A DNA stretch of 64,000 nt from Patescibacteria group bacterium UBA1388 (GTDB lineage Bacteria > Patescibacteriota > Microgenomatia > UBA1400 > PJMF01): the NCBI GenBank assembly GCA_002305355.1, contig DBQS01000014.1, positions 4,720 to 68,719 on the forward strand, in the 5' to 3' direction. Below, piece after piece: positions 3,407 to 27,274 of this stretch. A program made the position numbers and the translations under genes. The notes beneath the pieces are model-generated. The model had not been told where the DNA came from. It did no database searches and saw nothing but the letters and a program-made list of their open reading frames with translations. Position 1 is the stretch's first letter, and every line of letters starts with the position of its first letter.

Positions 3407-3508
3407 AAATTGAACTGAGTATGAACTGAGTATTAACAATCGGCGATATTTTGATAGAATGAGATCCATCAGATGTGGTCGTTATGAAACACTAGCGAGA
3501 CCAACATC

Positions 3509-5252: not shown

Positions 5253-5255
5253 AAT

Positions 5256-5762: not shown

Positions 5763-5768
5763 GTTAAG

Positions 5769-6212
5769 ATGGAGGCAAGTTTACGAAAGATTCATATGAA
5801 GATATTTTCTCGATTTAATAAAAAAGGTTTTACATTAATTGAACTGTTGGCCGTGATCGCGATTATCGCTATCTTGGCGGCGATGGGCTTGGTGGCATAC
5901 AGTAGCGCGCAAGCAAGTGCAAGGGATGCCAAGAGAATTGGTGATATGAAGGTACTTCAGAATGCTTTCGAGCAGTATGCCGCAGATCATCAGGGTGCAT
6001 ACGCTAGTTGCGAAACAATGTGGAGTGATGCGCAAACTACAGTTCAACCCACAACGGATACACAGGGCGATAGTTATACCTGCACCGGAAATGCAACTTC
6101 ATACTGTGCTTGCTCATCAGTTCTTGAAACGGTGAGTAAGGCGAACTCAGGTGCTGCATGCAATTGGACTGCAGCATCACTTGATCGGTATTGTGTGGGA
6201 AGCTTACAGTAG
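5769..6212 (+). CDS. Type IV pilin (prepilin; NKKG|FTLIELLAVIAIIAILAA)
   Basis: It has the canonical prepilin N-terminus with Glu+5 and C-terminal cysteines. An AGGT RBS precedes the ATG at 5769. Confidence 0.8.
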   Translation: MEASLRKIHMKIFSRFNKKGFTLIELLAVIAIIAILAAMGLVAYSSAQASARDAKRIGDMKVLQNAFEQYAADHQGAYASCETMWSDAQTTVQPTTDTQGDSYTCTGNATSYCACSSVLETVSKANSGAACNWTAASLDRYCVGSLQ

Positions 6213-6235
6213 CATAATTTATATATTAGGAATAT

Positions 6236-6658
6236 ATGGATAGAAAGAATTTTTTTTCGCAAGGATTCACTTTAATCGAATTACTAGTCGTCATTGCCAT
6301 CATCGCAATTCTAGCCGCTCTTGGTCTAGTCGCCTACTCTTCTGCCCAACGAAGTGCGCGGGATGCACAAAGAATGAGTACTGTTCGCGATATGGCGGCG
6401 GCCATGGAACAAGTCAAAGTGGAAACCGGAGATTATCCTACTTATATACCAAGCAATGGTGGATCCATCAGCGAAGGTACTGTTGAGTACGTGGTGCCAA
6501 CAGATCCTTCAAATCTTTCGGTTCTCAATAATAAGGTTGATGAGTTATGGTGTATATATTATGAGTTAGAACAAAATACAAAAGGAAATTGCGGAGGGTG
6601 TTCTGGAACTGACATAGATACTGGCACGGGCTTTGCTTGTGTAAGTAATAGACTCTAG
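6236..6658 (+). CDS. Type IV pilin (prepilin; FSQG|FTLIELLVVIAIIAILAA)
   Basis: It has the canonical prepilin N-terminus. It is a close paralog of the 5769 gene in the first 50 residues, with Cys residues near the C-terminus. Confidence 0.8.
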   Translation: MDRKNFFSQGFTLIELLVVIAIIAILAALGLVAYSSAQRSARDAQRMSTVRDMAAAMEQVKVETGDYPTYIPSNGGSISEGTVEYVVPTDPSNLSVLNNKVDELWCIYYELEQNTKGNCGGCSGTDIDTGTGFACVSNRL

Positions 6659-6665
6659 GAATTAT

Positions 6666-7121
6666 ATGAACTGGAAAAATCAAAAAAGAAACAACGGTTT
6701 TACCTTGGTGGAGTTGTTAGTGGTGATGACCATTATTGTGGTTTTGGCTTCCGTGGGGTTAGTGAGTTATCGCAATGCTAGCATCACAGCAAGAGATGCC
6801 AAGAGAAAAGCAGATATCGAGGCAGTGAGACAAGCGCTAGTTCTGTATAAACAGGAAAATACGTTATACCCTCAGCCTAGTGAAACAGATCAGTTTCTGC
6901 GATTTACTAGTGTAGTTGGTACTTTAGTGAATAATGGATTTCTTTCAGCTCCAGGTCCAAGCGATCCAACGAGATATGCATATACAAGGAAAGATTCTGG
7001 TCAAGGATTTTGTGTTTGCGCTACCCTAGAGGGAACTAATAACAAAGGTAATGCAACTACCTCTAGTGGTAACTGTACTATTACTGGATCTGGCAATTTT
7101 TACTGCGCGAAGAATCCTTAA
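6666..7121 (+). CDS. Type IV pilin (prepilin; RNNG|FTLVELLVVMTIIVVLAS)
   Basis: It has the canonical prepilin N-terminus with Glu+5 and C-terminal cysteines. Confidence 0.8.
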   Translation: MNWKNQKRNNGFTLVELLVVMTIIVVLASVGLVSYRNASITARDAKRKADIEAVRQALVLYKQENTLYPQPSETDQFLRFTSVVGTLVNNGFLSAPGPSDPTRYAYTRKDSGQGFCVCATLEGTNNKGNATTSSGNCTITGSGNFYCAKNP

Positions 7122-7125
7122 TTTC

Positions 7126-7656
7126 ATGCATGCAATGCCCAAAATTCAACTTCCCTACTTCAAACAAACAGGCTTCACCCTAATTGAATTGTTAGTAGTG
7201 GTGGCGATTACTTCGATTGTGGTGGGTGGCTCCATAGCTGGGTTTACTACTTTTGCCAAAAAGCAGGAAGTTTTGACTGCGACGCAAGAAGTGCGGCAAT
7301 TGTTTGTGAGTGCTAAAACCAAGGCTCAGGTTCAAGAAACACCGGCAGCATGTGATGGGGATACCGCAGGCGAAAAGCCATTACAGGGTTATCAGGTAGT
7401 AAAAACAGGGTCAGTGATAAAAATACAGCCTTTGTGCGGAGACACTATTGATGCAGCAATTGTTCCAGCCTCTCCCGGAACGCATCCCTCTTTTACAATT
7501 CCAACGGGTGTTGATGTGAGCATGAATACTATCAAATTTTTCACACTGAATAATGGAGTATTTCCTGCATCCGGTCAAATAATTACAGTTTCGGGAAATA
7601 CAAAAACTTACACTTTTACGATCAGTACAGGAGGGGCAATATCGGATGTTCAATAA
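7126..7656 (+). CDS. Minor pilin / pseudopilin (KQTG|FTLIELLVVVAITSIVVGG)
   Basis: It has a prepilin N-terminus. The start is assigned to ATG 7126 just after the upstream stop (7119-7121), because the track's longer ORF overlaps the previous gene. Confidence 0.7.
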   Translation: MHAMPKIQLPYFKQTGFTLIELLVVVAITSIVVGGSIAGFTTFAKKQEVLTATQEVRQLFVSAKTKAQVQETPAACDGDTAGEKPLQGYQVVKTGSVIKIQPLCGDTIDAAIVPASPGTHPSFTIPTGVDVSMNTIKFFTLNNGVFPASGQIITVSGNTKTYTFTISTGGAISDVQ

Positions 7657-8086
7657 AACCAAAACAGCTGGTTTTACCCTGGTAGAAGTGCTGGTAGCAG
7701 TGGTGATTGTGGCGTTAGTGCTGACCGCCATTGCAGCGGCACTTTCATTCTCAGTCAAAAATAGCGCTCAGGCAGATTACAGGCAAGTGGCCACTAGATA
7801 TGCGCAAGACGCGATTGATATTATTAGGCAAAAGCGGGCAACTGATGGGTGGAACAGTTTTTATTCCACATATTTGCCACCAAGTGGACAAAGTAGATGC
7901 CTTCAAAGCAATGGCACATTAACACCCACTCCTTGTGCAGCCTGGAATACTAACGGCACAAACTATACGAGGGTAATTAAAGTGGACAAGACAACTGGTA
8001 CAGCGACCATCACTGTCACTGTGTCTTGGCAAGATGGCTCAGCCACGCGGGATGTAGAAGTCGTCCAAAAATTGTTTGATTATTAG
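7646..8086 (+). CDS. Minor pilin / pseudopilin (GspI/PilV-like; MFNKTKTAG|FTLVEVLVAVVIVAL)
   Basis: It has a short 9-aa leader and a G|FTLVE motif. It overlaps the upstream gene by 11 nt, which suggests translational coupling. Confidence 0.75.
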   Translation: MFNKTKTAGFTLVEVLVAVVIVALVLTAIAAALSFSVKNSAQADYRQVATRYAQDAIDIIRQKRATDGWNSFYSTYLPPSGQSRCLQSNGTLTPTPCAAWNTNGTNYTRVIKVDKTTGTATITVTVSWQDGSATRDVEVVQKLFDY

Positions 8087-8353
8087 ATTACTTCTCTCCC
8101 CTACCCGCACAAAATTTCCACTCAGCTATGTTTACTAATGGTCATCGACTAAGCAAAAATCAGCGGAAATGTGCATTTTATCCCGCCTTGGCGGAAAAAG
8201 CCGATCGTGAAATCGGGGATATAGGCCAAGAAAAGCCACGGCAGAATTCCGCCAAAAAAGCCACAAACCCCAACCGCAAGGTTGTGGGAGTGGCTTCATT
8301 TACAACTTGAAACCCAGAGCTCAAGCTAGTCTGCAAATCGATGGGGAGGTTAA

Positions 8354-8905
8354 TCACAAAGCTAAGTTGCGCACCTGGACGGTAGTTTGAAATTCTTGAG
8401 TCAAAGAATTGTCAAAATTATCAGTAATGTTGAGGCTAAAAGAAACTTTCACTTGAGCTCCAGTACAAGTAAAACCTAGTGTGTTAAGCACTGTTTTGGC
8501 AGTGATGACTTTGCCATCGATAGTTAACTGTGGGGGGGTGCCAATCGCTCGGATGGTGATTGCATCACCAGCATTATTTGTGAGCGTAAGCACACTCGAT
8601 GAGGTACATTTTGCTGTCTTTGCATTCCTAATTTCAAACTCAATTTGATGCATGGCAGTGTTGCCGTCAGACTGAATGACGCGCCGGGCGTTGGTGCGGG
8701 CGTTGCTCAATAAAAACGTCATAAAAATGGTGGAAACGGTGATCATCACCATGGCGGTGATACCCACCACCACCAGCAGCTCAATCAGGGTAAAACCGGC
8801 TTTTTTGGTGTGAACTATTCTCTGCTCTGGTTGCTGCAAATTCGCGGAGGTGCGCATAGATATCCCTGATATTCCTGATTCGTCCGATTCGAATGATTTA
8901 ACCAT
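8354..8905 (-). CDS. Pilin-like protein with long leader (…HTKKAG|FTLIELLVVVGITAMV), last gene of the giant-protein operon
   Basis: It has a prepilin-type N-terminus after a leader of 21-37 aa. It lies on the opposite strand to the main pilin cluster, and its start is 13 nt after the stop of the 1076-aa protein gene. Confidence 0.65.
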   Translation of the reverse strand: MVKSFESDESGISGISMRTSANLQQPEQRIVHTKKAGFTLIELLVVVGITAMVMITVSTIFMTFLLSNARTNARRVIQSDGNTAMHQIEFEIRNAKTAKCTSSSVLTLTNNAGDAITIRAIGTPPQLTIDGKVITAKTVLNTLGFTCTGAQVKVSFSLNITDNFDNSLTQEFQTTVQVRNLAL

Positions 8906-8920
8906 CCCAATCTACCCGCC

Positions 8921-11900
8921 TTAGTTAACTTCCTGCCAATTGAGTGTGGTGGCTTTGAGAATGTCTGGGGCGTTGGTCACAAAGTCTGGCCGGTGGATGA
9001 AGAGCTCAGAAGGGATGGTTTTGCTCTCAATACCATCGACTGCTCTTTTCAAATCAATGCCATTCCAGCCCACATAGCTGCCTTCCAGTACTAGTCTCTT
9101 GTCTAACCCTGATCCCTCGGATTCTGTAGTAATTTTACCATTGGCTACTACCACTGCCTCAATATTGGCTGTGGTATCTGTTTCATCATCGTTACCAACG
9201 TTGCTATCAATGATGACGTTACCACTGACAAAGAAAGCTAAGAAGCCAGAATTATCCACCTTGATCAATTTTTCTTCTGCAGCATCTTGGCTGAAAGTTA
9301 GGTTGCCATTGACGAAGATAATGACTTTATTGGTACCCACATCCCAGGTAGAGCTGGGATTAACAACAAGATCACCCTCTCTGTGGAATACTTTTGCGCC
9401 TTCTCTATCTGTGCCAGTGCTAATGGTTAGATTACTAATCGAGCTTGTATCAATCGTTTTTACTCCGGTTAAATCAACTTTTTGTTTAAAGTAATCAAAA
9501 TTTTCCAAAGTGACGCCAGCCTTCATATTAGCTCCTTTGGCATATTTGCTTTCGTTATTGTGCAGAGTCATGAATCCAAGAATGCTGGGCGGAGAAATGT
9601 TGCCATTGGTAATTGGTATGCCAGCAGATTTAGCTATGGAAAGCTGTGCTGTCCTAATTAAGTAGGGATAGCAGTTGTTGTCAGCATTACATGCAAAAAC
9701 ATCATCTGTAGGCAGATTAGAGCTTAAACTTGAGTGGCCGTAAACCAAACCACCCCAGGTTTGCCACCATGGCTCTGCTGTTAATGATGCAACGTCTCTT
9801 AGGTAAAAATGCGCATCATTTTTTGGTGGATTAATTGATCCAATATAGACACATGAATTGTCATAACCGGTAACTTTTAGCCCCTCTGTAGCAGACTCAG
9901 AATTGCAGCTAGCACAAACATAATCAGAATCTTTGAAATGCAAAATAGGCTGCAGTTCTGTAGCAGACTCAGGTACTTTAGCTGTATAGCTTGATGATTG
10001 AGTTTCAATGTCCTCTCCTTCGGTGGGAGGATTAAGAGTAACAGCCGCATCTAATGTGATGATGTTTTTTTCTGCATCTGTAGCGCAAGTATTGTTTGGG
10101 GTCACGTAGAAATTGCCGGAGATTTGAGCACTACTCAATGGCGCACAGACCTCAGATTCTTCATAATTTTCTAATCGACATCTCTTTCCTTCGTTTGCAG
10201 TTTGATAACAGGTGTAGTTTTGATTTCCATTATTAGTTGTGTCTTGACACTGCTCATCTGATGTGCAGAAATCATCACATTTAATTGAATAATCAGCAGG
10301 TTTACAATAAGGATCAGGTTCATTGACTCCCAATCGACACTTATCCCCTTGGCTGGCGGAGCACACAAACGCAGGATCACCTCCATTAGCTTTATCTTGG
10401 CACTGTGCATCACCAACTGGTCCTGGAGTACACTCGTCATTACATTTTATTGGAGTGTCTTCCGCTTTCGTACACGATAATGGCTTTAACTCAGTCTTGC
10501 CTGCTGGATGACCAGCGGTAGAATCTTGAAAATCAGATCCAACCCAGTCAATTTGGGCTAGCGGTTGGCCAGGACACTGATACTGCAAATTTGCTCCGAC
10601 AGCTAAATATGGGTTAAAACCATTGGTATTTAGATAATTAACAAGTTGATTAATTGAGCGGTTATTGCCACCAATGAGGACTGATGGATTCCAGGTAAAA
10701 TTGACAGTTGAGCCTGGCGAGTTAACCGTCTGGATAATATATCCAACTCCTCTGCCTTGCTCTCCATCATAAACATAATCTGGTGTACCCAAGTAGGTTT
10801 TAATGGCAGTAGCATTAGTATCACTATCCATGATGCTGATAAAAAGATTGGTTTGGGTTGAAGGGCATCCGCCCGTGGCTTCAGAACTGATATTTAGGTT
10901 GTAAGTGTAAGTCAGCCAGTTGTCACCAACATCTTTAGATTGCAGACTAGGATTGCAGAAGTGTGAAAGAGAAACAAGTTTGCCTCTCCCAGGAGGTGGT
11001 GTCGGGGGGCACCACTCCAACTTACACGAAGCATCGTTGCTTCTCTGACTCGCGTTTTCATCCCACACATAAGCTTTGTAAGTCGTGCCAGGCACCAATA
11101 CTAGTGGTTTGTTACGTGCCTCAGCTTGGCCAGTAAACTCACTTTTAACAATTGATAAGTCATTGCCATAAGTTGGCCACTTATTCCAAAAGTATCCAGT
11201 ATTGTTATCCCATGATCTACCCTCTTCGGTGATATTAAAAACGAGCCCCGAACCACTGCCCCCATCCCAAGTAAATTTTAATTTATTATCGGTTCTATTA
11301 GGAGTGGCACGATCAACACAGTCGGTGGCTGTACACCTGAGGTTTTTAGGAGGGGAGCCATCTCCTTCTATCAAGAAGTTAATATTGCCAATGTGATAGT
11401 GAAAATTATCATGTTTATAACCTGTTGGTGAATAGCCATTCCACTTTAACTTGATCTTGATTTGAGCTAGTTCACACCCATCGCTTCTTCCACAAACCGG
11501 CATATTTTCTAATGAGTAATAATGATATGGCATCCCATCACGCTTAAAAGTGCCTGCTTTTGTCAACTTTGAATTTTCATCAACTCCAGGGTCACCTGCA
11601 ACAACGGGGTGAGATCTTAAGCAGCCTTCATGATCTGGAATTAGGCTGTGTTGGGTATGAAATCTATTGGTAAAAGGTTCAGATCCTTGATTACCACATT
11701 TTTCATCTGGTCCAAGAGTATCGACATCCTCATAAACCCACTTATCACTCTCACCTGCTCGCTTTTGAGGTAATAGTTGGGTGTCAGATCCAAAGACGTT
11801 AACTAGATTACCATTGGTATCATATTTATACCCATAAATTTTGAAGTCGCCGCCTTCATCATGATCGTGAATGGTCAAATTTATACCCTTCACCAAAGTA

Positions 11901-18662: not shown

Positions 18663-21110
18663 TTACTCAATATATACATTTCCAGCGCTATCTACAAGTT
18701 TTGTGATGAGTGGATTGAAAGTGTATCTATTACCATCTTTATCTTTTACCAATTCAACCATGGGGTCTAGAAGTGGTGTAAAGACCGGATAATCATAAAA
18801 TTCTGCATTAACTTTGTCTGGTTGAATTCCTGCTTCTTCTCTCAAGAACATGCTTGTCGCGCTGATGAATGATGATGCAATTCCATATGGCCCAGGCTTT
18901 CCAAGAGTGACATGAAAAATTAATTGACTTTCAACGACTTGTGCAAAATTACTGGGCAAATCGAGTACTTTATTGGGTCCTAGATACCATTCCCCCGGAT
19001 GAATTTGATTCTCAGTTTCTGGTGTTCTGAATATAACAAATTTTACAGGTTTAGACCTGTCAATCACAATTTCTTTTCTTTTTCCCTGAATAGTGTAAAT
19101 AGATCCTTCAACAGAAACATTAGGACTTTGAGCTAAGATCTCAAAAAAATTATTCATCATCCTATCTACGAGGATAGCGCCATCTATATCTGAATATTCT
19201 TGAAAATCCTCATTTGGTCCAATATAACCAAGTTCTTTGTAATCTTTTATGAGCTCAGCAGTAGGATTGAAGTCCCACCTCATTTGATGTTGTGATAGCG
19301 GCATTTTTTTGAGAGAGTTTGGTAGAATTTCTAGCAAGCCAATAGGTTCTTCAATCATTCTCACTCTGTATGGATGAATGTTGTTGTATCCCGCGTAACT
19401 ACAAATTTGGGTTTGAAGGGTTTCAAATTGCTTAATAATCCAACCACTCCGGTAATCAAGATTATCCCACTCCATTTCTATTTGTTTTTCACCTGTTTGC
19501 AATTGAGCAAAAAGTTTATTTCCTATCATCCAAAGTTTAAAATCATCTTGACTAAATATTTGTTTTTCTGCTTTTCCAGTAGTTTTATTTTCTACCAGTA
19601 ACTCTTTGGGAAGGTTAGTTATTGCTTCCTTTACAATTTCATTTTCTGGGAAGGCTGCCAGAAACTCGGCAGCGGTGTATCGTTTAGCACTCACCTCCTC
19701 CATCGTTTTCCATTTGCCATTGTCAAATCTGCCTAGTTCATTGCCATTGGTGTCAAGCGCGATGGGACCTTTTTCACTATCTATATAAATACTGACTGCT
19801 GAACCGGGAAACTTCTCTACAGCAAGTGCTAATAACTGGTCAGGTTCAATCTTGCCACCCATACCAGTAGAAGCCTCATCTTCATCATTCGTACTTGCAT
19901 ACTTTTCTAAATTTGAATTAATTTCTTGCCCAGTAGTCACACTCACATCCTTGCTCTCTTGTTTTGTCAAGTTTGGATCGGCAGAAATGTAGGCTTGTCC
20001 AACACCCTCTAGATTCACGATATACCAGCCATCTTCTTCACCAACTATCTCTACTCTATCTCCTGCTTTAAGTGAACCTACCACAGTATGATTTGTGCCA
20101 GGACCAGACCTGACATTGAGAGCTGCTGCTAAAATGACTGCTTCTCTGACTGTTTTGGTAATAGTAACTTGTTCTTTTTCTTCTAAGTTCCTTTTTGGCA
20201 CCCACACATATTTAACTTCTGGTTCTTCGTTAGATTCAGCAGTAAGCTCATCATCAACAGGTTTGTCATCATCAGCTTGTGGTGCGGTATCATCAGGTGT
20301 TAAAACTACTTTTACAGCAATAAACTCTTCACCGTTAATGATCATTGATGTTGCAGACTGAATTGAATCTCCTTCTTTAAACTCTACATCTGCCATGACT
20401 GTGGTAGCATCATATGGAGAAAGTAGTGGTAAAGTATCAATCAACACGCGGTAACTTTTAATAACTGGTGATACTTCTAATTTTGACTGCGCAACTGCTG
20501 ATTCTTCTTGCCCTGCTTCTTCCTGATTGCTCTCACTTACTGGCACTGCATCCTCGCCATTAAGTTGATCACTTGAATCAATTGGTTCTGGTGTGGGTGT
20601 AGCATTAAGCAGTGGATTTTCTCCTGCTTGAATGGTGGCGGTAGGGGTGGGGACACCACTTTGAGCGGAGGCTTCGCGAGGAAGACTAGACATCAGCATC
20701 ACAGCGATGGCAACTGCAGCTGCTGCTGAAGTAACTTGTTTGTATTTTTCAGTCAAGAACAAGAATAGCCTGCCTCTATTAGCTTCTAGTCCAGTTGGAA
20801 TATCAACTTGACCGACCTGATCCATGATGGCTCGTGCTTGTTCTGGGGTAATAGCGGCCACTTCAGCAATAGTATGGTTAGGGGAAAGAGTTCGTTCAAT
20901 AATGGCTCTGAATTCTTTGATAACTTCTGGTGAAATTGATGAAATTTCTGCCAACCTAAGCTGCTCTTCTCTTCTTGGTGAAGATTCACCAACTTCTCTC
21001 CTGCCAGTTAACGACTGATTAATAGAGCTGCGAAGATTCTGTAAGTTATGTAGCTGCCCTTCTCTATCCGGATTTCCAGATCTTCTTTCGTTTTCTAAAA
21101 GTGCATCCAT
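18663..21110 (-). CDS. Type II membrane protein (815 aa) with bacterial SH3 (SH3b) domain and large extracellular region
   Basis: A cytoplasmic N-terminal region of about 125 aa precedes a TM segment (VTSAAAAVAIAVMLMSSL). The motif 'LNVRSGPGTNHTVVGSLKAGDRVEIVGEEDGWYIVNLEG' is a classic SH3b domain. It is the first gene of the minus-strand operon. Confidence 0.6.
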   Translation of the reverse strand: MDALLENERRSGNPDREGQLHNLQNLRSSINQSLTGRREVGESSPRREEQLRLAEISSISPEVIKEFRAIIERTLSPNHTIAEVAAITPEQARAIMDQVGQVDIPTGLEANRGRLFLFLTEKYKQVTSAAAAVAIAVMLMSSLPREASAQSGVPTPTATIQAGENPLLNATPTPEPIDSSDQLNGEDAVPVSESNQEEAGQEESAVAQSKLEVSPVIKSYRVLIDTLPLLSPYDATTVMADVEFKEGDSIQSATSMIINGEEFIAVKVVLTPDDTAPQADDDKPVDDELTAESNEEPEVKYVWVPKRNLEEKEQVTITKTVREAVILAAALNVRSGPGTNHTVVGSLKAGDRVEIVGEEDGWYIVNLEGVGQAYISADPNLTKQESKDVSVTTGQEINSNLEKYASTNDEDEASTGMGGKIEPDQLLALAVEKFPGSAVSIYIDSEKGPIALDTNGNELGRFDNGKWKTMEEVSAKRYTAAEFLAAFPENEIVKEAITNLPKELLVENKTTGKAEKQIFSQDDFKLWMIGNKLFAQLQTGEKQIEMEWDNLDYRSGWIIKQFETLQTQICSYAGYNNIHPYRVRMIEEPIGLLEILPNSLKKMPLSQHQMRWDFNPTAELIKDYKELGYIGPNEDFQEYSDIDGAILVDRMMNNFFEILAQSPNVSVEGSIYTIQGKRKEIVIDRSKPVKFVIFRTPETENQIHPGEWYLGPNKVLDLPSNFAQVVESQLIFHVTLGKPGPYGIASSFISATSMFLREEAGIQPDKVNAEFYDYPVFTPLLDPMVELVKDKDGNRYTFNPLITKLVDSAGNVYIE

Positions 21111-21332
21111 AAATATCCTGTAATTGAAGTATTAGTTACTATTATTAAGCCGTTATTTGCTTCAAGTCAATGTATTTTAATTGTATCTTATAATAATTGC
21201 AATGTGTATCAAATACATACTTGAGAACAGTGTCGAGTTGGCTCATAATCTCTTAAAAATTACTCAACAGAGAATTTGCAGCCGGTGTACAATACCCAGC
21301 ACAATTATTATAGATTTTGATAGAATTTTTAG

Positions 21333-22202
21333 ATGTCATCTTCAAAAAATAGCCAATTTGCTCCACCTTTGCCAAATCAGAAGTGTACTTACGAACAGTT
21401 GGAATGGTATTTGCGCCATAAACACGATTTGCCTGCCAGTGACCGGGAAAAATATAAGTATTTAATCGACAATTTTAAGGAGTGTTGGGAAATTTGGAAT
21501 CGGGTGCGGTGGGACGCGGCGATGAAGAGCAGGGGTGTTTTAGAACTAAAAAAATATTTGGGGAATGATTTTATACCTTATTTTGATTCTTCTTGGGCAT
21601 TGGCTAATGAATGGAACAACAAAAAGCGAACATCAAAAAAATTAGTTGAAGATTTTTATCAACATACTCCTCATTACATGTACAATTCGACAGTATTTTT
21701 TGAAAGCGGAGATAGAATTAATTTTCATGACCACTTACTAAAACTAATCGATGAATATAACATTACATCAGCAGTCGACTATGGTTGTGGTGTTGGCAAC
21801 GATGGTTTGATGATGGTTGAAAAAGGTATAAAAGTTTCTTTTGTTGATTTTTTGTCACCAACTTTAGAATTTCTAAAGTGGAGATTGCAAGATAGAAGTA
21901 TTAAGCCAGATTTATATTCCGTTCATGAGTTAAGACAAGAAAAGCCAGGAGTTATTGATGCAGATATGTTTTGGAGCATAGATGTTATCGAACACATGCT
22001 AGATCAAACAGAAATTTTCAAATACATACCAACAAGCACGAAACTAGCAGTGTATTACACAGACGATGATGAAGAAGCTGGAACAAGACACCCATTTCAT
22101 TTTAAAATCAATCATAAGTTATTATCAAAAATGTTTTCTGATTTAGGGTTTAGAAGAATTCCAAATGATCTTCTTGTTGTATGGTATAGGGAGAATTTTT
22201 GA
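21333..22202 (+). CDS. Class I SAM-dependent methyltransferase (motif I VDYGCGVGNDGL) with N-terminal extension of about 140 aa
   Basis: It has the Rossmann-fold MTase motifs 'DYGCGVGNDGLMMVEKGIKVSFVDF' and 'IDADMFWSIDVIEHM'. The substrate is unknown. Confidence 0.65.
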   Translation: MSSSKNSQFAPPLPNQKCTYEQLEWYLRHKHDLPASDREKYKYLIDNFKECWEIWNRVRWDAAMKSRGVLELKKYLGNDFIPYFDSSWALANEWNNKKRTSKKLVEDFYQHTPHYMYNSTVFFESGDRINFHDHLLKLIDEYNITSAVDYGCGVGNDGLMMVEKGIKVSFVDFLSPTLEFLKWRLQDRSIKPDLYSVHELRQEKPGVIDADMFWSIDVIEHMLDQTEIFKYIPTSTKLAVYYTDDDEEAGTRHPFHFKINHKLLSKMFSDLGFRRIPNDLLVVWYRENF

Positions 22203-22226
22203 GTTACATGATAGAATGCAAGAATC

Positions 22227-22802
22227 ATGAAAACATATTTTACATGTTCTGCCAGAGGAAATAGACAATTAAAAAATAATTATTTAAAGATTTTTGAAAT
22301 AATTGAAAACTTGGGCTACTTTCATGTCGATGATTATCGCAAAGCTAATGATCCAAAAAAAGTGTATGAATCCTCAAGAGAGGCAAATTTACAACTTTAC
22401 GAAAAGGCAATGCTATGTATCAAGAAGGCTGACATTATCATATTAGAGGTGTCTACCCATAGCTTATCAATGGGGTATTTGCTTCAACAAGGACTTAGTA
22501 TGGGAAAACCAGTTGTAGCTTTGTATGCAGAGGGACACAATCCTGCATTCATCAATGGCATTGAGAACGAAAAACTTCAAATAATTGAATATTCAGATGA
22601 GAATTTAGAGAGTGAACTTTCATCAGCACTAAAAAACTGTGAAGATTTGAGTGATGTTCGTTTTAATTTTTTCATATCTCCTGAAATTGTCAGATATTTG
22701 GAATGGATTTCTAAAGTGAAAAAAATTCCACGTTCTGTTTATTTGCGGGCTTTAATAGAAGAAGACCTTGAAAATAACCGGGAATTTCGTAGATCAAAGT
22801 AA
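22227..22802 (+). CDS. DNPH1/Rcl-like (nucleoside 2-deoxyribosyltransferase superfamily) domain fused to C-terminal ribbon-helix-helix domain
   Basis: 'KTYFTCSARGN…' and 'ADIIILEVSTHSLSMGYLLQQGLSMGKPVVALY…LQIIEY' parallel the DNPH1 segments 'VYFCGSIRGGRE…' and 'ADVVVAEVTQPSLGVGYELGRAVALGKPILCLF…FQVWDY'. The C-terminus 'RFNFFISPEIVRYLEWISKVKKIPRSVYLRALIEEDLE' fits the RHH pattern: a beta-strand, helix A, a G/P-x-S/T turn, then helix B. Confidence 0.6.
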   Translation: MKTYFTCSARGNRQLKNNYLKIFEIIENLGYFHVDDYRKANDPKKVYESSREANLQLYEKAMLCIKKADIIILEVSTHSLSMGYLLQQGLSMGKPVVALYAEGHNPAFINGIENEKLQIIEYSDENLESELSSALKNCEDLSDVRFNFFISPEIVRYLEWISKVKKIPRSVYLRALIEEDLENNREFRRSK

Positions 22803-23384
22803 ATGAGCAGGATTATTAAGATATTCTACAATTTTTCAGTACGAAGCTCACCTGGTGTGTTGATAAGTTCGAAAAATATTATTAAATGGTTTAAGTCTCA
22901 AAAATATATATTGACTTATAACGCATTTAAAAATGGATCTGCAAGTGAAATATATTCATCAGAAATGGAGAGGTTAGAATACTTGTTTGAATCTGCTACC
23001 CAAGCCCTTAAAGACTCCGACCTTTGCATTTTAGAAATCTCCACCCACAGTCTTTCTCAAGGCTATCTCCTTCAAAAAGCCCTTGAGGAAGGCAAACCTA
23101 CTATCGCTTTACATCTCCCAAATTGTTTGCCCGTTTTTGTGGCGGGAATTCATGACAGCCGGTTGCAAGTCGTTGAATACACTCCAGCCAAAATGATTGC
23201 TGTTTTGAAGGAGGCAATCAACTACGCATCAGAAGACTTTGATATTCGTTTCAACATGATGCTTTCCCCCACCCTGAATAGTTATCTTAAACAACTAGCT
23301 AAGCAGAAAAACATGTCCCGTTCCTCATGTGTCAGAGCGATGATTAGAGAGAATATGGTGGTTGCTCAAGCCAGGATGAATTAG
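22803..23384 (+). CDS. Paralog of the preceding gene: DNPH1/Rcl-like domain fused to C-terminal RHH domain
   Basis: It has 'SDLCILEISTHSLSQGYLLQKALEEGKPTIALH…LQVVEY' and the C-terminal RHH 'RFNMMLSPTLNSYLKQLAKQKNMSRSSCVRAMIREN'. Its start codon directly abuts the upstream stop (TAAATG). Confidence 0.6.
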   Translation: MSRIIKIFYNFSVRSSPGVLISSKNIIKWFKSQKYILTYNAFKNGSASEIYSSEMERLEYLFESATQALKDSDLCILEISTHSLSQGYLLQKALEEGKPTIALHLPNCLPVFVAGIHDSRLQVVEYTPAKMIAVLKEAINYASEDFDIRFNMMLSPTLNSYLKQLAKQKNMSRSSCVRAMIRENMVVAQARMN

Positions 23385-23477
23385 TGCGGCGATTGGGAAA
23401 TATGAACGACCAACTTTCCACTTGCACTTGTTGCTTCAACTACGTTATTATGGAACAGTTATGGATTAGTTTTTCCT

Positions 23478-24293
23478 ATGCAAAAATATTTCCTCAAGCA
23501 AATCCGTAGTCAAAATAGCTCTTCCCAATCAGGTCAAATTGCTATCATTGTGCTCTTGATTATGGTGGTGTTGTTGATCGTGGGTTTGTCATTGGCCAGA
23601 AGAACATCGGAAGAGATTTTACTGTCTGGGCAAGTGGAAGATACGACAAGAGTGTTTAACGCTGCGGAGACTGGGATTGAAGATGCGCTTTCAGATGAAA
23701 GTAATTTTGCGACAACTGAGAAAAGTGGGGAGGGCACTGTGGGTGACGCGCAGTATGAGTACAGCGTCAATCCTGAAATTGAGTTGGTTGACAAGTTGGA
23801 GCCGAATCAAGTGGCGACGGTGGATTTGAATGGCAAAGCCAATAATTCGACTTTCGATGTGTATTGGGCTAAAGATGGAAATTGCGCCGATCGTGCGGTG
23901 ATCATTGTTTCTGTCTATTATGACAATGGCGCGAGCGTTTACCATGAGGCTCTCAAGCCAGGGTGTTTATCAGAAGATATGGGCAAAAATTTTACTCAAA
24001 TTGCGGAGCAAACTTCTGTGCAAATAAACGCAAACGGAGGTTATTATCATACAGCGCAGATTAATGTAAAAAACACTCCAAAATTTGCCCGCATTCGTCC
24101 GCTCTACCACAGCACCGACATCCGCGTTACTAACGCTGGTCAACAGATGTACACCATTCGTTCAGAAGGAACCGAACAAGATCCAGACGGCCGGAGCGAA
24201 CAGCGCGCGATTGAAGTGACCAGAACCAAACCCGCGCCACCAGCGGTGTTTGATTATGCGCTGTACAGCGGTGGAGATTTGAGTAAGCCTTGA
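23478..24293 (+). CDS. PilX-like pilus assembly protein (PilX_N-type N-terminus)
   Basis: 'SGQIAIIVLLIMVVLLIVGLSLARRTSEEILLSGQVEDTTRVFNAAETGIEDAL' matches the PilX N-terminal pattern (G-x-ALIxxLxxLxxLxxLGLAALR…ERMAGN…AFQAAEAGL). It lies immediately upstream of pilMNO. Confidence 0.5.
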   Translation: MQKYFLKQIRSQNSSSQSGQIAIIVLLIMVVLLIVGLSLARRTSEEILLSGQVEDTTRVFNAAETGIEDALSDESNFATTEKSGEGTVGDAQYEYSVNPEIELVDKLEPNQVATVDLNGKANNSTFDVYWAKDGNCADRAVIIVSVYYDNGASVYHEALKPGCLSEDMGKNFTQIAEQTSVQINANGGYYHTAQINVKNTPKFARIRPLYHSTDIRVTNAGQQMYTIRSEGTEQDPDGRSEQRAIEVTRTKPAPPAVFDYALYSGGDLSKP

Positions 24294-24323
24294 TAGGGAT
24301 ATTAATAGGATTAAGGAAAAGTC

Positions 24324-25334
24324 ATGCCTGCCACAGCACTTGATATCGGCACGTATAGTATCAAAGCCATTTCCGGAGAGCCTGGTAGTAAGCCGCAAGT
24401 TAATCGAGTGGTAGAAGTTTTCAACCCCAGCGGGGTGGCAGTGCCCACCGATGATGCCGGAGTGGAAAAGTTGGCGGCATTGGTAGAGTCAGTTTTGGGT
24501 GATTACGATTTACCGCGCAGAGATGTGCGCTTATCTATCCCGGAAACGATGGTTTCTACTAAAGTGATTTCTATTCCTCCCCTTTCCGATGCAGAACTGG
24601 CTTCGGCTATCAACTGGCAGGCTGAGCAACACATTCCTATTCCCCCAGAAGAATTAGCACTTGAGTACCAGGTTGTTTTTCGGCCTAGCCGGCGTGATGA
24701 TAAGCAGCCGATGCGGGTGATGCTGGTGGGCTTGAGGAAACAGATTATTGATCGTTATGTACAGGTGATGCACCAGATTGGGGTGGAGCCAACTTTGATT
24801 GAAACGCAAGTGCTTTCCATTATGCGCTCACTGCAATTTACCAATCAAGACCCCACCACCTTGTTGGTACACATTGGCGGTTCTAGCATGAATTTGGCCT
24901 TGATTCATTTGAATGAACTCAAGTTTGTGTTATCACATTTAAATGGCGGCCAATTGTTGTCTAAAGCACTGGAGCAAACTCTGGGGTTAGATGCTACCCA
25001 AGCCGAGCAGTACAAGCGCACCTATGGTTTAGATCCCGCCCAATTTCAAGGTAAAGTACGTGAGGCGTTGATGCCGGCTACTCGCCTTTTAGTTACTGAA
25101 ATTAAAAAATCCGTGCAATTCTTTGTCAATCAAAATCCTCAGGAATCGGTGAAAAGGATTGTGCTTTCGGGAGGTTCAGCCGCTTTACCGGGGATAGTGC
25201 AATTTATTACTGATGAGATTGGCTCAGAAGTGTTGGTGGCGGAACCGTTCGCTACTGCAGGCGGTAATATCCCAGACCAAATCAACCGTCCAGCCATGGC
25301 CGTCTGCATGGGTTTATTGTATCGTGACGCGTAA
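24324..25334 (+). CDS. pilM: Type IV pilus assembly protein PilM (actin-like ATPase fold)
   Basis: The N-terminal 'ALDIGTYSIKAI' phosphate-1 motif and '…VHIGGSSMNLALI…' with 'IVLSGGSAALPGI' are actin/FtsA-fold motifs typical of PilM. Confidence 0.8.
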   Translation: MPATALDIGTYSIKAISGEPGSKPQVNRVVEVFNPSGVAVPTDDAGVEKLAALVESVLGDYDLPRRDVRLSIPETMVSTKVISIPPLSDAELASAINWQAEQHIPIPPEELALEYQVVFRPSRRDDKQPMRVMLVGLRKQIIDRYVQVMHQIGVEPTLIETQVLSIMRSLQFTNQDPTTLLVHIGGSSMNLALIHLNELKFVLSHLNGGQLLSKALEQTLGLDATQAEQYKRTYGLDPAQFQGKVREALMPATRLLVTEIKKSVQFFVNQNPQESVKRIVLSGGSAALPGIVQFITDEIGSEVLVAEPFATAGGNIPDQINRPAMAVCMGLLYRDA

Positions 25335-25346
25335 AGAGGATTATTC

Positions 25347-26006
25347 ATGGCCAGAACTATCAACTTTGTCCGCGATCGCCGTCAAACCATTAGTCGGCAG
25401 GTCAAACAAGATCAAGCTATATTACGTTATGTTATTTACGCCTTAATTGGTATTGGTTTGGTATTGTTTGCGGTGCTAGCCGTGCGTTTTTTCTTTATTT
25501 TTCGCATTAAGATGATCACAGATCAGCAGGCAGCAACTAGACAAGCGATCGTTGAAAAAGAAGAGTTGGAAAAGGAGTACACCATTTTTGCCCATAAATT
25601 GAAAGCAATTACTGATTTATTTGGCAAACGAAGAGAAAAACAAGAAGCGTTGGCTTTTTTTAGCGGATTGTTTGATCCAGGAGTGGTGATTAGTCAGCTG
25701 AGTTATAAAGCTGGTGAGGAAATTTTGTCTTTTACGATTGATTCACCCAGCATTTTTGCCCTGGAAAAAGTGTTTGAGATTATGAATAGCCCGGAAGTTG
25801 AAGAAAAGTATCCCCAAATTATGAAAAATTCTCTTTCTAGAGGTGCCAATGGTCATTACGGTATGTCAATTACTTTACCGCTCGGCGATTCACCATTGGA
25901 TACTTTAGATGAGGAAGGGATGGAACCCGTTGATGATGATATGGGCGTTGAGGGAGTGGGTGCAGACGGCGCGGGAGATGACACCGGTCAGCCAATGGCG
26001 GAATAA
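25347..26006 (+). CDS. pilN: Type IV pilus assembly protein PilN-like (bitopic; short cytoplasmic N-term, TM, coiled coil)
   Basis: The N-terminus 'INFVRDRR' (the PilM-binding INLLP-like peptide) is followed by a TM segment (YALIGIGLVLFAVLAV) and a coiled-coil region. It sits immediately after pilM. Confidence 0.55.
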   Translation: MARTINFVRDRRQTISRQVKQDQAILRYVIYALIGIGLVLFAVLAVRFFFIFRIKMITDQQAATRQAIVEKEELEKEYTIFAHKLKAITDLFGKRREKQEALAFFSGLFDPGVVISQLSYKAGEEILSFTIDSPSIFALEKVFEIMNSPEVEEKYPQIMKNSLSRGANGHYGMSITLPLGDSPLDTLDEEGMEPVDDDMGVEGVGADGAGDDTGQPMAE

Positions 26007-26053
26007 GACGTCAGCGAAATTTAGATTAAGATTGAGGAAATACTAAAAAACAT

Positions 26054-26959
26054 ATGTTAGAACAAGTTGACCAAAGCGATTTAAGAATTTTTTGGGTAAC
26101 TAGGAAGGCGCTGGTTTTTGCCTTGGCTTTGGCAATGGTGGGCGCGGTACTTGTCTTTTCTGTGACTATTCCCCAAATTCAGGAGACTCGCAAATTGTAT
26201 GCTGATTTGGAAAAAGAAAAACCGATTTTGGAAAAGCTAGAAAATAAGTTAGCTCAACTGGAAGCGATTGTGACGACACCTGAATATGCACAAATAGAAG
26301 TGATCAACGATGCTCTCCCCTCAAAGAAGCCACTATTGGAATACCTGATGGGATTGAGCATGGTGAGTGAAGAGGCCAACGTAGTGATCACTAATTTTGA
26401 GACATCTCCTGGATTAGTAGCGACAGATGCCGCAGAACTGGAAAAAAATCAAAAATCGCATGTTGACGTGGAATCCATGAAACTGGAATTAGATTTAGAG
26501 GGTGACTGGGCGGAAATTCAGACTTTCATGTTGAAGGTAGAAGAAATTGCGCCATTTACCACCATTACTCAAATGGATATTGGCAACTCTTTAACTTCGG
26601 ACACTGTTGACGAAATTGAAACTTTTCAAGCAAGTTTGAGTACAGAAACTTACTTTTTTACCAAGACAATTGAATCTAAAGTTGATAGTCCGTTACCAGT
26701 CATATCGGGTCCGGAAACGCAGGTTTTGCATTTGCTAGCTTCATTTGTGCCCACCGAACTGCCTAGCCAGACTGAGATAAGAGGTGGCGGTTTAGAAGAT
26801 TTATTTCAACTGCGATTGCGATCCGATGAAGAAGCAGCAGTCATGTTGGAAGATTTTGAGATAGAGACTCAATCTACTCAAACACCAGAGATGCCCACAG
26901 TTGACGATACCACTTCTACTGAGTTGGAGAGCCCAACGCAGGTAGGAGAAGAAATTTAG
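26054..26959 (+). CDS. pilO: Type IV pilus assembly protein PilO-like (bitopic, coiled coil)
   Basis: An N-terminal TM (ALVFALALAMVGAVLVFSV) is followed by a coiled coil (LEKEKPILEKLENKLAQLEA). The call rests on position in the pilM-N-O order, and the sequence is weakly diagnostic. Confidence 0.45.
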   Translation: MLEQVDQSDLRIFWVTRKALVFALALAMVGAVLVFSVTIPQIQETRKLYADLEKEKPILEKLENKLAQLEAIVTTPEYAQIEVINDALPSKKPLLEYLMGLSMVSEEANVVITNFETSPGLVATDAAELEKNQKSHVDVESMKLELDLEGDWAEIQTFMLKVEEIAPFTTITQMDIGNSLTSDTVDEIETFQASLSTETYFFTKTIESKVDSPLPVISGPETQVLHLLASFVPTELPSQTEIRGGGLEDLFQLRLRSDEEAAVMLEDFEIETQSTQTPEMPTVDDTTSTELESPTQVGEEI

Positions 26960-27028
26960 GATATTTTCAAAAAAATCTCAGACGATAATTGAATTTGAAA
27001 TTTAAGTCCAAATTGATGGGCTCGTTTT

Positions 27029-27274
27029 CTATGCTAACTCACTACCATCTGCCAAGACAATCTTAGCGCGAATACCCTCTTTGAGTGCCCGAATTTTTCC
27101 AATGTTGCGAATTGCAAAAATGATCGAACCACCCTTACCAATGACGCGGCCGATGTCTTCTTGGTTGACGTGAATGGTATAAACCGTGCCCCTTTCGTCC
27201 GGAGTTTCTTCAATTTGCACATCTTCCGGATGACTTACGAGATGAATGACGATAAATTCGAGCAGGTTTTTCAT
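27029..27274 (-). CDS. KH-domain RNA-binding protein (YlqC/UPF0109-like)
   Basis: A GxxG loop (IGRVIGKGGSII) sits in an 81-aa protein immediately downstream of rpsP, which is the conserved rpsP–KH synteny. Confidence 0.6.
   Translation of the reverse strand: MKNLLEFIVIHLVSHPEDVQIEETPDERGTVYTIHVNQEDIGRVIGKGGSIIFAIRNIGKIRALKEGIRAKIVLADGSELA

Follow-up and report, generated by a model that had tools for sequence, protein, structure and literature searches.

What might be the function of two adjacent, paralogous proteins, each joining a nucleotide hydrolase-type fold to a ribbon-helix-helix (RHH) domain, when they are encoded directly behind a methyltransferase? The question is raised by a cassette of three genes, all on the plus strand, in a window (the whole stretch of DNA analysed, 64,000 nucleotides) from an uncultivated, ultra-small Microgenomates/CPR bacterium, consisting of a SAM-dependent methyltransferase gene (MT, 21333-22202) and the two fusion genes, termed here NR-A (22227-22802) and NR-B (22803-23384), with the stop codon of the former abutting the start codon of the latter as TAAATG. 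According to its GC composition, the cassette is more AT-rich than its flanks in the window. An earlier sequence-only reading of the locus had proposed the fold assignments, the paralogy of A and B and the gene order, all of which were found to be correct by profile and alignment checks, the two adjacent paralogs sharing their architecture and 33% identity (E 5e-35). The same reading offered three possible functions: a nucleotide-sensing regulator pair, a nucleotide-depleting defence module or a toxin-antitoxin-like system.

NR-A is composed of a DNPH1/MilB-like N-glycosidase-fold domain (aa 1-141, nt 22227-22649) and a C-terminal RHH (aa ~142-183, nt 22650-22775), and NR-B, a divergent paralog, is built from the same two domains. 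The N-domain has the NDT/DNPH1 alpha/beta fold, with NR-B giving a PDB profile match to Rcl (E 2.6e-4). In human DNPH1, roles have been assigned to Tyr24, Asp80, Glu104 and the phosphate-binding residues, the 5'-phosphate cradle being formed by the loop Ile29-Gly31 with Arg30 as a lid, by Ser98 and by Ser128 of the other subunit (PMC10483697). The presence of the catalytic Glu, which the earlier reading had left to be checked, could be settled: the position of the nucleophile (human DNPH1 Glu104, rat Glu93) is occupied by Leu85 in A and Leu89 in B. The position of the acid (human Asp80) is Ala in both (Ala61 and Ala65), while the catalytic Tyr (human Tyr24) is kept as Tyr4 in A and is Phe8 in B. 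The phosphate-cradle residues are kept in A as Ser8, Arg10 (followed by Gly11) and Ser79, equivalent to human Ser28, Arg30 and Ser98, and in B as Ser12/Arg14 and Ser83; in the pairwise comparison Ser128' falls opposite Pro106, at a site where the multiple-alignment mapping is unreliable. A further residue, Glu74 of A (Glu78 of B), which corresponds to human Glu93, is invariant, and no role for human Glu93 was found in two DNPH1 papers. Judging by these residues, both copies fall outside the catalytic requirements of DNPH1/Rcl and are probably devoid of catalysis.

The C-terminal segment displays, as far as its sequence can tell, the strand-helix-turn-helix profile of an RHH. The Pfam model RHH_3 matches 10 of 19 family C-terminal segments (best E 8.8e-7), the match being weak at the level of the single sequence for NR-A (E 0.0046-0.048) and no Pfam RHH match being obtained for NR-B. 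Residues 145-188 of NR-B, whose RHH strand reads DIRFNMMLSP, gave weak matches to NikR and to a LexA-regulated RHH, and the best PDB profile match for the RHH segment was to the CopG family (E 0.33). In the AF2 monomer model of NR-A, residues 142-151 are extended and two helices follow (152-165 and 169-183). About 130 of 132 family members share Arg145, Phe146, Asn147 and Arg174 of the strand and turn, a pattern which parallels that of Arc.

The first gene of the cassette encodes a 289-aa class I SAM-dependent methyltransferase, identified by its Rossmann-like fold and by motif I (the glycine-rich DYGCGVGNDG), which is invariant in its family. Compared on its own with the Pfam methyltransferase families the protein stayed below threshold, and its 36 homologs, which are found only in Patescibacteria and align over the full length, carry PF08241, PF08242, PF13649 and PF13489. 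Its N-terminal domain (about residues 20-141) is all-helical and specific to the family. The PDB profile search returned generic class I methyltransferases (E 2.6e-7), as did Foldseek with the AF2 model (pLDDT 91.7), where many class I enzymes were matched generically. A Hen1-like ribose 2'-O-methyltransferase topped the Foldseek results, but this identity was dropped because the PDB profiles were generic only and because the 'IEH' motif is common to class I methyltransferases.

The NR fusion is, from comparison of its sequences, a large and previously unannotated family with a stable two-domain architecture, comprising approximately 1,064 cluster representatives at 50% identity (E<=1e-10), nearly all of them about 190 aa in length and matched over the full length. 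The family is unnamed and Microgenomates-specific and occurs in no fewer than 163 species-level genomes; NCBIfam has no model for it, and a literature search found no paper on it. The description of the locus as an unknown system is apt insofar as the fusion is unannotated, all its public copies being 'hypothetical' or unnamed, but the fusion is no rarity, the family being Microgenomates-wide. Two classes can be distinguished within it, one retaining the Glu without the lid Arg and the other Glu-less and mostly keeping the lid Arg, the latter being the non-catalytic class to which NR-A was assigned. The nucleophile is kept in 44 of 132 members, which rules out the family-wide loss of Glu hinted at by an alignment biased towards A, while the equivalent of Asp80 is Asp in none of the 132. 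Since about one third of the family keeps both Tyr and Glu, it can not be regarded as uniformly one of sensors, and the Glu-retaining members may be true enzymes. Upon clustering of the family, NR-A is placed in the main conserved cluster and NR-B is a singleton, as are many second copies.

The expectation that the three genes would be conserved together was borne out in part: the exact MT-A-B trio is confined to the close relatives L001, L018, L086 and L087, whereas a SAM-dependent enzyme beside one to four copies of the fusion is a theme of the whole family, some contigs having several NR loci. Methyltransferases and radical SAM enzymes account for 32 of 178 NR-adjacent genes as against 3 of 786 elsewhere (odds ratio 57, from statistics that ignore relatedness), and the upstream partners (n=66) include at least 22 methyltransferases and at least 11 radical SAM enzymes. 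The partners are diverse, PfkB, a deaminase and a P-loop kinase being found as well, and NR subclades track the partner family; the link between Glu-type NR and radical SAM enzymes rests on three partner families only, again with relatedness ignored by the statistics. The SAM-dependent enzyme and NR may be co-directional, divergent or convergent, or the enzyme may lie downstream, and this variable arrangement constitutes a regulator-like neighbourhood, which supports a role in regulation. At some NR genes an enzyme neighbour is lacking. The family occupies a small number of chromosomal slots that are stable within lineages and have housekeeping genes on either side, those of other lineages being located at RecR-CysS, UvrD-RmlC and Pth.

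Upstream of MT, as the sequence-only reading had recognised, lies a divergent AT-rich gap, the presumed promoter/operator region (21111-21332, 222 bp, 28.8% GC), which separates MT from a minus-strand gene for an 815-aa protein and in which several sigma-70-like matches were found along with imperfect inverted repeats, all without conservation elsewhere. An extended -10-like element, TGATAGAAT, read directly at 21318-21326 of the plus strand, ends 6 nt before the MT start codon, implying a leaderless or near-leaderless transcript. A second copy of TGATAGAAT on the same strand (22209-22217) ends 9 nt before the start codon of NR-A and is a probable internal promoter for A-B. This 9-mer occurs three times in the 64 kb of the window against 0.76 expected, two of the occurrences being those that precede MT and A, and at other loci, where NR genes often have an extended -10 element of their own, such elements were found upstream of 9 of 47 NR genes compared with 17 of 450 intergenic regions of at least 40 nt.

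Downstream of the cassette and on the same strand are a PilX_N-like gene (23478-24293), pilM (24324-25334), a pilN-like gene (25347-26006) and a pilO-like gene (26054-26959), identified by Pfam labels on orthologous loci and by profile matches across loci. Their sigma-70-type promoter (plus strand, 23422-23451; -35 TTGCAC at 23422-23427, -10 TATTAT at 23446-23451) sits within the 93-nt spacer between NR-B and pilX, where no terminator was found, and the pattern TTGCA-N17/18-(G)TATTAT is conserved between NR and pilX at many loci, making this promoter a candidate second target of A and B. A tandem direct repeat with an 11-nt period, TTATGGAACAG/TTATGGATTAG (23448-23469, plus strand), overlaps the pilX -10 in an operator-like position; it is confined to the window and to the near-identical strain L086, where it has one substitution, and shows no conservation at other loci. 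K-mer enrichment and start-anchored inspection across loci detected no operator motif shared upstream of NR genes or cassettes, the only candidates being extended -10-like elements and a weak 8-mer, AATGAGTA (8 versus 0), which is missing from the window. In strain L086, the 21111-21332 region is nearly identical. NR-A is 100% identical there and NR-B differs by four synonymous and no non-synonymous substitutions, so that both NR copies appear, from these two comparisons, to be under purifying selection. A recent transfer between strains specific to the cassette was considered and rejected, since the low divergence from L086 also extends over pilN/pilO and the pattern is therefore mosaic.

Among the three functions originally offered, a nucleotide-sensing regulator pair gives the best fit, because the catalytic Glu and Asp are absent from both copies. 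We put the chances at about even that A and B descend from a nucleotide hydrolase and work as RHH regulators that sense a ligand and control their own cassette and possibly the promoter of the neighbouring pilus genes. How the NR proteins would bind DNA and assemble, what ligand they would sense and which targets they would regulate is inferred as follows. A and B would act as one-component, ligand-responsive transcription factors in which a ligand of the nucleoside or nucleotide type would be bound in the pocket of the dead hydrolase domain; the Ser/Arg loop and the Ser that hold the 5'-phosphate in DNPH1 are still present in this domain. Dimerisation through the RHH combined with dimerisation of the DNPH1 type would result in dimers of dimers, possibly including A/B heteromers, and the RHH would bind operators at the promoters of the cassette (21111-21332 and 22203-22226) and perhaps also at the pilX-pilMNO promoter directly downstream. 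The ligand would probably be tied to the chemistry of the adjacent SAM-dependent enzyme, e.g., an adenosyl by-product or a nucleotide. Several observations count against this model: no conserved operator motif accompanies the genes, the DNA-reading strand is nearly invariant among paralogs of the same genome, which is unusual for transcription factors with separate regulons, the single sequences of A and B give a weak Pfam RHH match and none, respectively, and the third of the family that keeps Tyr and Glu may consist of true enzymes.

Regulation directed specifically at the pilus is a rival idea, according to which A and B would be dedicated regulators of type IV pili and DNA uptake, sensing (deoxy)nucleotide monophosphates and tuning pilX-pilMNO in a nucleotide scavenger. 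CPR bacteria are believed to use pili and competence systems to acquire DNA as a source of nucleotides (PMC6744442), the window and many other loci have NR directly upstream of pilX-pilMNO with a conserved promoter in the short spacer between them, and the N-domain derives from a dNMP-binding enzyme whose phosphate-cradle residues are kept. The adjacency is nevertheless lineage-specific, as NR is found near pilX in 21 of 48 loci (44%) of a pilM-anchored sample and is not in the remaining 27, other lineages place it in the slots named above, and pilX promoters across loci share no operator beyond the promoter itself; we consider a dedicated pilus regulator unlikely. That NR might be an obligatory part of the type IV pilus operon fitted the first three contexts seen and is refuted by the wider survey and by the same 27 loci.

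If, instead, the cassette resembled a toxin-antitoxin system, the upstream enzyme (here MT) would be a growth-inhibiting effector and NR an antitoxin in the style of HicB, whose enzyme-derived N-domain would neutralise the effector and whose RHH would autoregulate the operon, with one scaffold reused for many unrelated effectors. The architecture does parallel that of HicB and of the promiscuous Panacea antitoxins, an effector gene is commonly followed by the RHH gene, the two often overlapping or abutting, and the diversity of the partners, their tracking by NR subclades, the one to four copies per locus with several loci per contig and the AT-rich composition relative to the flanks would all be in keeping with it. 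The partners are, however, ordinary-looking class I methyltransferases and radical SAM enzymes that belong to no recognised toxin family, order and orientation vary (including convergent and divergent arrangements) in a manner atypical for such operons, enzyme neighbours are missing at some NR genes, PADLOC gave no match, and the lineage-stable slots among housekeeping genes together with the lack of copies in phages, plasmids and viral contigs speak against a mobile module, which makes this explanation quite unlikely in our judgement. Were NR a metabolic partner of the SAM-dependent enzyme, e.g., an N-glycosidase acting on SAH/5'-deoxyadenosine or on modified nucleotides, with the RHH restricted to autoregulation, catalysis would be required of it; yet hydrolysis by the known mechanism is excluded for A and B because the Glu nucleophile and the Asp are missing, the Asp80 equivalent is kept in no family member, and the small number of partner families behind the Glu/radical-SAM link adds to the case against such a role, which we regard as very unlikely. 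The defence module suggested earlier fared worst. A similar two-domain logic has been published for retron types II-A1 and II-A3 (PMC7736814), in which an NDT-like and a DNA-binding domain are combined, and an anti-phage effector depleting nucleotides or adenine derivatives would be compatible with the low GC of the cassette. Against this, no reverse transcriptase gene lies beside NR in the window or in the examined loci, no conserved neighbour of that size was found across 80 loci, the cassette region of the window has no Rfam match to an ncRNA, the DNA-binding domain is an RHH and not a winged helix, and the catalytic Glu is missing from A and B. PADLOC found no defence system among the proteins of the locus, the comparison of the three cassette proteins with PADLOC-DB v2 being non-significant (best E 0.0026, for MT against mad2 in the generic methyltransferase region, and 0.014), and as searches of phage, plasmid and IMG/VR viral sequences were likewise negative for NR copies, a defence or mobile-element origin was rejected; a role as a defence effector is highly improbable.

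Extended from A and B to the whole family, the regulator model would make NR a new class of enzyme-derived one-component regulators coupling SAM-dependent chemistry to transcription in Microgenomates, a speculative generalization to which we assign a low probability. Glu-type members would be bifunctional 'trigger enzymes', N-glycosidase and RHH repressor in one, with a nucleotide or an adenosyl by-product (5'-deoxyadenosine or SAH, for instance) as their substrate. The Glu-less, mostly lid-Arg class, to which A and B belong, would only sense ligands of this kind and would thereby gate the neighbouring gene for a methyltransferase or radical SAM enzyme; in some lineages the genes of the type IV pilus platform would be under the same control. 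The matter is of importance as CPR/Patescibacteria possess very few recognisable transcription factors and much 'hypothetical' sequence, and the NR family follows a clear domain logic, falls into two functional classes defined by their residues and is linked strongly and specifically to SAM-dependent enzymes. If they are ligand-sensing repressors, these soluble proteins of about 190 aa would provide a tractable entry into gene regulation in Microgenomates and a natural example of a nucleotide hydrolase situated between enzyme and sensor, and the occasional placement of NR upstream of the pilX-pilMNO promoter suggests a link to the control of pili and DNA uptake.

The closest relatives of the NR N-domain in sequence and structure are DNPH1/Rcl and the CMP hydrolases MilB/BlsM, which have the same fold; the phosphate-loop Ser/Arg and the Ser98 equivalent of DNPH1 are also conserved in A and B, whereas the Glu nucleophile and the Asp acid are missing, the catalytic Tyr is replaced by Phe in B, and the extra C-terminal RHH is present in no characterised DNPH1 or MilB. 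The sequence-only reading did not recognise the combination at this locus as a known system; for the joining of an enzymatic fold to a DNA-binding module as such, precedents exist in the type II retron effectors, in which an NDT-superfamily domain is fused to a C-terminal DNA-binding domain as in NR (PMC7736814). Those effectors are about 300 aa long, are related to PF15891-type NDTs and keep the catalytic Glu (E106 in the Ec86 effector) that A and B lack, and they carry a winged helix and are always accompanied by a reverse transcriptase and an ncRNA, neither of which was found here beside the RHH-bearing NR. The neighbours of A and B are MT, the pilX-like/pilMNO genes and the 815-aa protein, which places the cassette outside the type II retrons.

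PutA, PurR and HicB are further precedents for the fusion of an enzyme-type fold with a DNA-binding domain. HicB antitoxins combine a degenerate RNase H-like fold with a C-terminal RHH and are encoded downstream of their partner gene; the partner of NR is a 289-aa methyltransferase and not a small HicA toxin, no mobility signal is present here, and the MT-A-B cassette, as judged from its genes, would seem to include neither a recognised toxin family nor a mobile or patchy module of the type II kind. In Bacillus subtilis PurR, a catalysis-dead nucleotide enzyme fold, that of a PRT, has been reused in a repressor, sensing PRPP and being joined to a winged helix, which differs from NR in fold, in DNA-binding domain and in taxa. 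MetJ (SAM), NikR (Ni) and PutA couple an RHH to a small-molecule-binding or enzymatic domain, MetJ tying it to SAM metabolism, although in these proteins the RHH is N-terminal or stand-alone and the sensor domains are, unlike that of NR, unrelated to the NDT/DNPH1 fold.

The two proteins NR-A (191 aa, 22227–22802) and NR-B (193 aa, 22803–23384) belong to an undescribed, large and lineage-specific family of enzyme-derived ribbon-helix-helix (RHH) proteins, here called NR, in which a domain of the DNPH1/MilB-like N-glycosidase fold is followed by a C-terminal RHH domain. Both are encoded on the plus strand behind a class I SAM-dependent methyltransferase gene (MT, 289 aa, 21333–22202), and the layout proposed in the sequence-only reading holds: the three open reading frames occupy 21333–23384, the stop codon of NR-A abuts the start codon of NR-B (TAAATG), the two proteins are paralogs (33% identity over 181 residues, E 5e-35), and the AT-rich divergent spacer, estimated there at 220 bp, measures 222 bp with 28.8% GC. 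On the far side of this spacer from the cassette lies a block of minus-strand open reading frames of 815, 197 and 1410 aa. The cassette is itself AT-rich, with a GC content of 34.5% in MT, 32.6% in NR-A and 38.8% in NR-B; the window as a whole has 41.7% and pilM 48.1%. Elsewhere in the window are found tRNA-Val(GAC) (44593–44669), tRNA-Cys(GCA) (48115–48192) and a bacterial class A RNase P RNA (52847–53230; 104 bits, slightly over the gathering score of 100).

The earlier assignment of the N-terminal domain to the DNPH1/Rcl fold was borne out by comparison with PDB sequences, where residues 3–131 of NR-A (E 1.2e-8) and 59–135 of NR-B (E 2.6e-4) matched rat Rcl/DNPH1; single-sequence Pfam searches gave a sub-threshold match to PF05014 for NR-A (E 1.5e-4) and none to this domain for NR-B. 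In human DNPH1 the catalytic residues are Tyr24, Asp80 and Glu104, and the Ile29-Gly31 loop with its Arg30 lid, Ser98, Gly100 and Ser128' together bind the 5'-phosphate (PMC10483697). Mapping on DNPH1 places Leu at the position of the nucleophile Glu104 in both proteins (Leu85 in NR-A, Leu89 in NR-B) and Ala at that of the acid Asp80 (Ala61, Ala65), with the catalytic Tyr24 corresponding to Tyr4 and Phe8, the phosphate loop and lid residues Ser28/Arg30 to Ser8/Arg10 and Ser12/Arg14, and the phosphate contact Ser98 to Ser79 and Ser83. Judged from these residues, neither protein can be an N-glycosidase acting by the known double-displacement mechanism, and both appear to retain much of the anion- and phosphate-binding cradle. 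The domain is homologous to DNPH1 and MilB, but NR-A and NR-B fall outside the catalytic members of that group.

The last ~50 residues (DVRFNFFISPEIVRYLEWISKVKKIPRSVYLRALIEEDL in NR-A) are the most conserved part of the family, and their assignment to the RHH fold, also made in the sequence-only reading, is well supported: Pfam RHH_3 matches 10 of 19 family C-terminal segments (best E 8.8e-7), and Arg145, Phe146, Asn147 and Arg174 vary little or not at all among 132 family members. The best PDB profile match of the segment is a CopG-family regulator, a weak one (E 0.33), NR-B gives weak matches to NikR and to a LexA-regulated RHH protein, and in the structure model an extended stretch precedes two helices. 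The strand and turn pattern xFNxxxxP...(G/P)RSV resembles that of the Arc repressor, and DNA binding by the domain may be inferred.

When 1.84 billion cluster representatives were searched exhaustively with the family profile, 2,159 matched at E<=1e-3, 1,064 at E<=1e-10 and 242 at E<=1e-30; almost all have ~190 aa and align over their full length; a single 401-aa representative matched the profile in two stretches, a tandem NR-NR fusion consistent with the idea of paired copies acting together. The 216 relatives from a word-indexed search, almost all of 186–207 aa, are without exception named 'hypothetical' or not named at all, the exact window proteins are present in public collections but nameless, no NCBIfam model exists for NR-A or NR-B, and no published description of a DNPH1-like/RHH fusion was found in the literature, which upholds the view that the fusion lies outside annotated families. 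Relatives occur in 163 stretches in a scan of species-representative genomes, and all 80 fetched loci are labelled as Microgenomates-type groups (Pace-, Woese-, Roizman-, Collier-, Gottesman-, Chisholm- and Beckwithbacteria) or bear plainly mislabelled MAG titles. The many species-representative MAGs with this CPR-specific family that are titled 'Pseudomonadales', 'Gammaproteobacteria', 'Methylococcaceae', 'Limisphaerales' or 'Bathyarchaeia' (L006, L009–L012, L016 and others) look like such taxonomic mislabels. NR may be among the 35 families, mostly hypothetical, that Meheust et al. found to be enriched in Microgenomates (PMC6744442).

Two classes can be distinguished within the family. In the fetched loci, 44 of 132 NR proteins have Glu at the nucleophile position and most others a hydrophobic residue, and none has Asp at the Asp80 position. 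Glu is accompanied by the lid Arg in 2 proteins and lacks it in 42, Arg stands without Glu in 66 and neither is present in 22, the two residues being almost mutually exclusive (Fisher p 1.6e-15, phylogeny not corrected for); this was repeated in independently sampled loci, with Arg in 0/13 Glu-type members. Glu-type proteins retain further DNPH1 pocket residues, among them Trp at rat W72 (human W83) and Pro at rat P86, positions at which the Glu-less class has diverged; NR-A and NR-B are both Glu-less and Arg-bearing. Conservation of the RHH domain is equal in the two classes.

In the first three contexts examined NR is followed by a PilX_N-like gene, pilM, pilN and pilO, as at 23478–26959 of the window, and the full MT-A-B-pilX order recurs in L001, L018, L086 and L087. 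Membership of the pil operon, suggested by these contexts, was rejected in a reverse test anchored on pilM in metagenome contigs: NR adjoins or lies near pilX in 21 of 48 informative loci and is missing from the other 27, and is therefore a facultative neighbour, not a component, of the pilus platform operon. A wider survey (81 loci, 103 NR blocks) confined NR to a few lineage-specific slots, namely before pilX-pilMNO, between YbaB-RecR and a coiled-coil protein followed by CysS, between UvrD and RmlC/aminopeptidase/Map/RpoD, and after Pth, labels other than those of the pil genes being read from sequence motifs. Most blocks (77) have a single NR gene, 23 have two, 2 have three and 1 has four, and second copies, NR-B included, are often divergent singletons. 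In many Microgenomates a fast-evolving, K/E/Q-rich, coiled-coil-like protein of ~165–200 aa, with no recognisable domain, keeps its position between NR and cysS (L029 7571–8176, L060 8303–8806, L009 3657–4151 and others). A series of small co-directional open reading frames at 4263–8086 of the window (329, 168, 147, 140, 151, 201 and 146 aa) looks like a possible counterpart of the prepilin-peptidase/minor-pilin block, with its N_methyl domains, upstream of the L001 cassette.

A robust association is that with SAM-dependent enzymes. The co-directional upstream neighbours of NR (n=66) include at least 22 class I methyltransferases and 11 radical SAM enzymes, with a few PfkB kinases, dCMP deaminases, P-loop kinases and PEP-utilising domains, and a strictly applied motif classifier assigns 32 of 178 genes adjacent to NR, but 3 of 786 others in these loci, to the methyltransferases or radical SAM enzymes (odds ratio 57, p 1e-21). 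The arrangement varies (enzyme>NR>, enzyme<NR>, NR>enzyme>, NR>enzyme<), as expected of a regulator and its target or of a functional partner and not of a fixed operon, and each NR subclade tends to keep to its partner family even where the slots differ. All 11 NRs with a radical SAM partner are Glu-type, a link that is suggestive only, since the 11 cases represent just three partner families. The MT family of the window, with 36 relatives, all in Patescibacteria, is found together with NR in about 11 loci; its motif I, DYGCGVGNDG, is invariant, and DVIEH and RHPFH are among further invariant residues. The MT model (pLDDT 91.7) sets an all-helical N-terminal domain (residues ~20–141) against a class I core, with bacterial Hen1 methyltransferase domains and various small-molecule methyltransferases as best Foldseek matches at modest TM; no substrate is assigned because PDB profile matches are to generic class I enzymes only (among them PMT, a TehB homolog, GNMT and UbiG).

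In L086, a near-identical strain with the same gene order, NR-A is 100% identical, NR-B differs by 4 synonymous and 0 non-synonymous changes, MT by 2 and 3, and pilM by 30 and 0. The PilX-like gene (23478–24293 against 12146–12952 in L086; 816 and 810 nt, the middle poorly alignable) and the large protein across the spacer (18663–21110 against 7149–9776; 815 and 875 aa) have strongly diverged between these otherwise ~98–100% identical strains, which suggests diversifying selection or recombination of surface and pilus components. Divergence over 19691–27080 is mosaic, near zero at 21441–23190 (MT-A-B) and 25081–26580 (pilN/pilO) with 6–23 differences per 250 nt in between, a pattern that recombination between strains could explain.

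Three copies of the extended -10-like 9-mer TGATAGAAT are present in the window (3452–3460, 21318–21326, 22209–22217), where 0.76 would be expected. The second copy ends 6 nt ahead of the MT start codon and the third 9 nt ahead of that of NR-A, with no Shine-Dalgarno sequence in between, suggesting near-leaderless transcripts in this organism and a putative internal promoter for NR-A and NR-B; NR genes in general show an excess of such elements upstream. No terminator was found between NR-B and pilX, and the 93-nt spacer there holds a predicted sigma-70-type promoter (TTGCAC 23422–23427, TATTAT 23446–23451) whose layout, a C-rich tract, TTGCA, 17–18 nt and (G)GTATTAT, is strikingly conserved in many Microgenomates NR-pilX spacers (L006, L007, L012, L015, L016, L033, L034 and others). 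An 11-nt tandem repeat overlapping this -10 element in the window is conserved nowhere else. No operator motif common to the family was found. The sole lead, the 8-mer AATGAGTA/TACTCATT, is present in 8 upstream regions of NR or partner genes (L008 1019, L011 2639 and 6036, L019 6077 and 7594, L036 6673, L073 4235, L085 5685 and others) against 0 of 450 background intergenic regions, and is absent from those of the window; it may be an operator half-site or an artefact of lineage or related loci.

The simplest model for all these observations, to which we give about an even chance, is that NR proteins are one-component regulators. The DNPH1-type domain, its catalysis lost in NR-A and NR-B, would sense a nucleoside or nucleotide, and the invariant RHH domain would bind DNA and regulate both the neighbouring enzyme gene and NR itself, with the pilX promoter a plausible additional target in the window lineage. 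The model is weakened by the lack of a detectable operator and by DNA-reading residues unusually invariant among paralogs. A special case of it, a dedicated nucleotide-responsive pilus regulator, is unlikely, and a division into 'trigger enzyme' and sensor linking SAM by-product or nucleotide chemistry to transcription is similarly doubtful.

A HicB-like antitoxin with a variable effector enzyme is an improbable reading. That NR-A or NR-B is the catalytic partner of the window's SAM-dependent enzyme seems quite improbable, the nucleophile being missing from both, and would be more plausible for Glu-type relatives. The missing nucleophile also speaks against the nucleotide-depleting defence module raised from the sequence alone, as do the lack of any PADLOC match to MT, NR-A or NR-B and the essential absence of NR relatives from IMG/VR contigs, phage genomes and plasmids. 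A retron-like defence effector is very improbable indeed. Among published architectures the nearest is that of type II retron effectors, in which an NDT-like domain is joined to a winged-helix DNA-binding domain (PMC7736814). The Ec86 effector has a catalytic E106, and the system depends on a reverse transcriptase and a non-coding RNA, neither of which the NR locus has. The closest functional analogies to regulation by NR are the enzyme-derived or ligand-sensing repressors PurR of B. subtilis, MetJ, NikR and PutA, together with HicB-type antitoxins.
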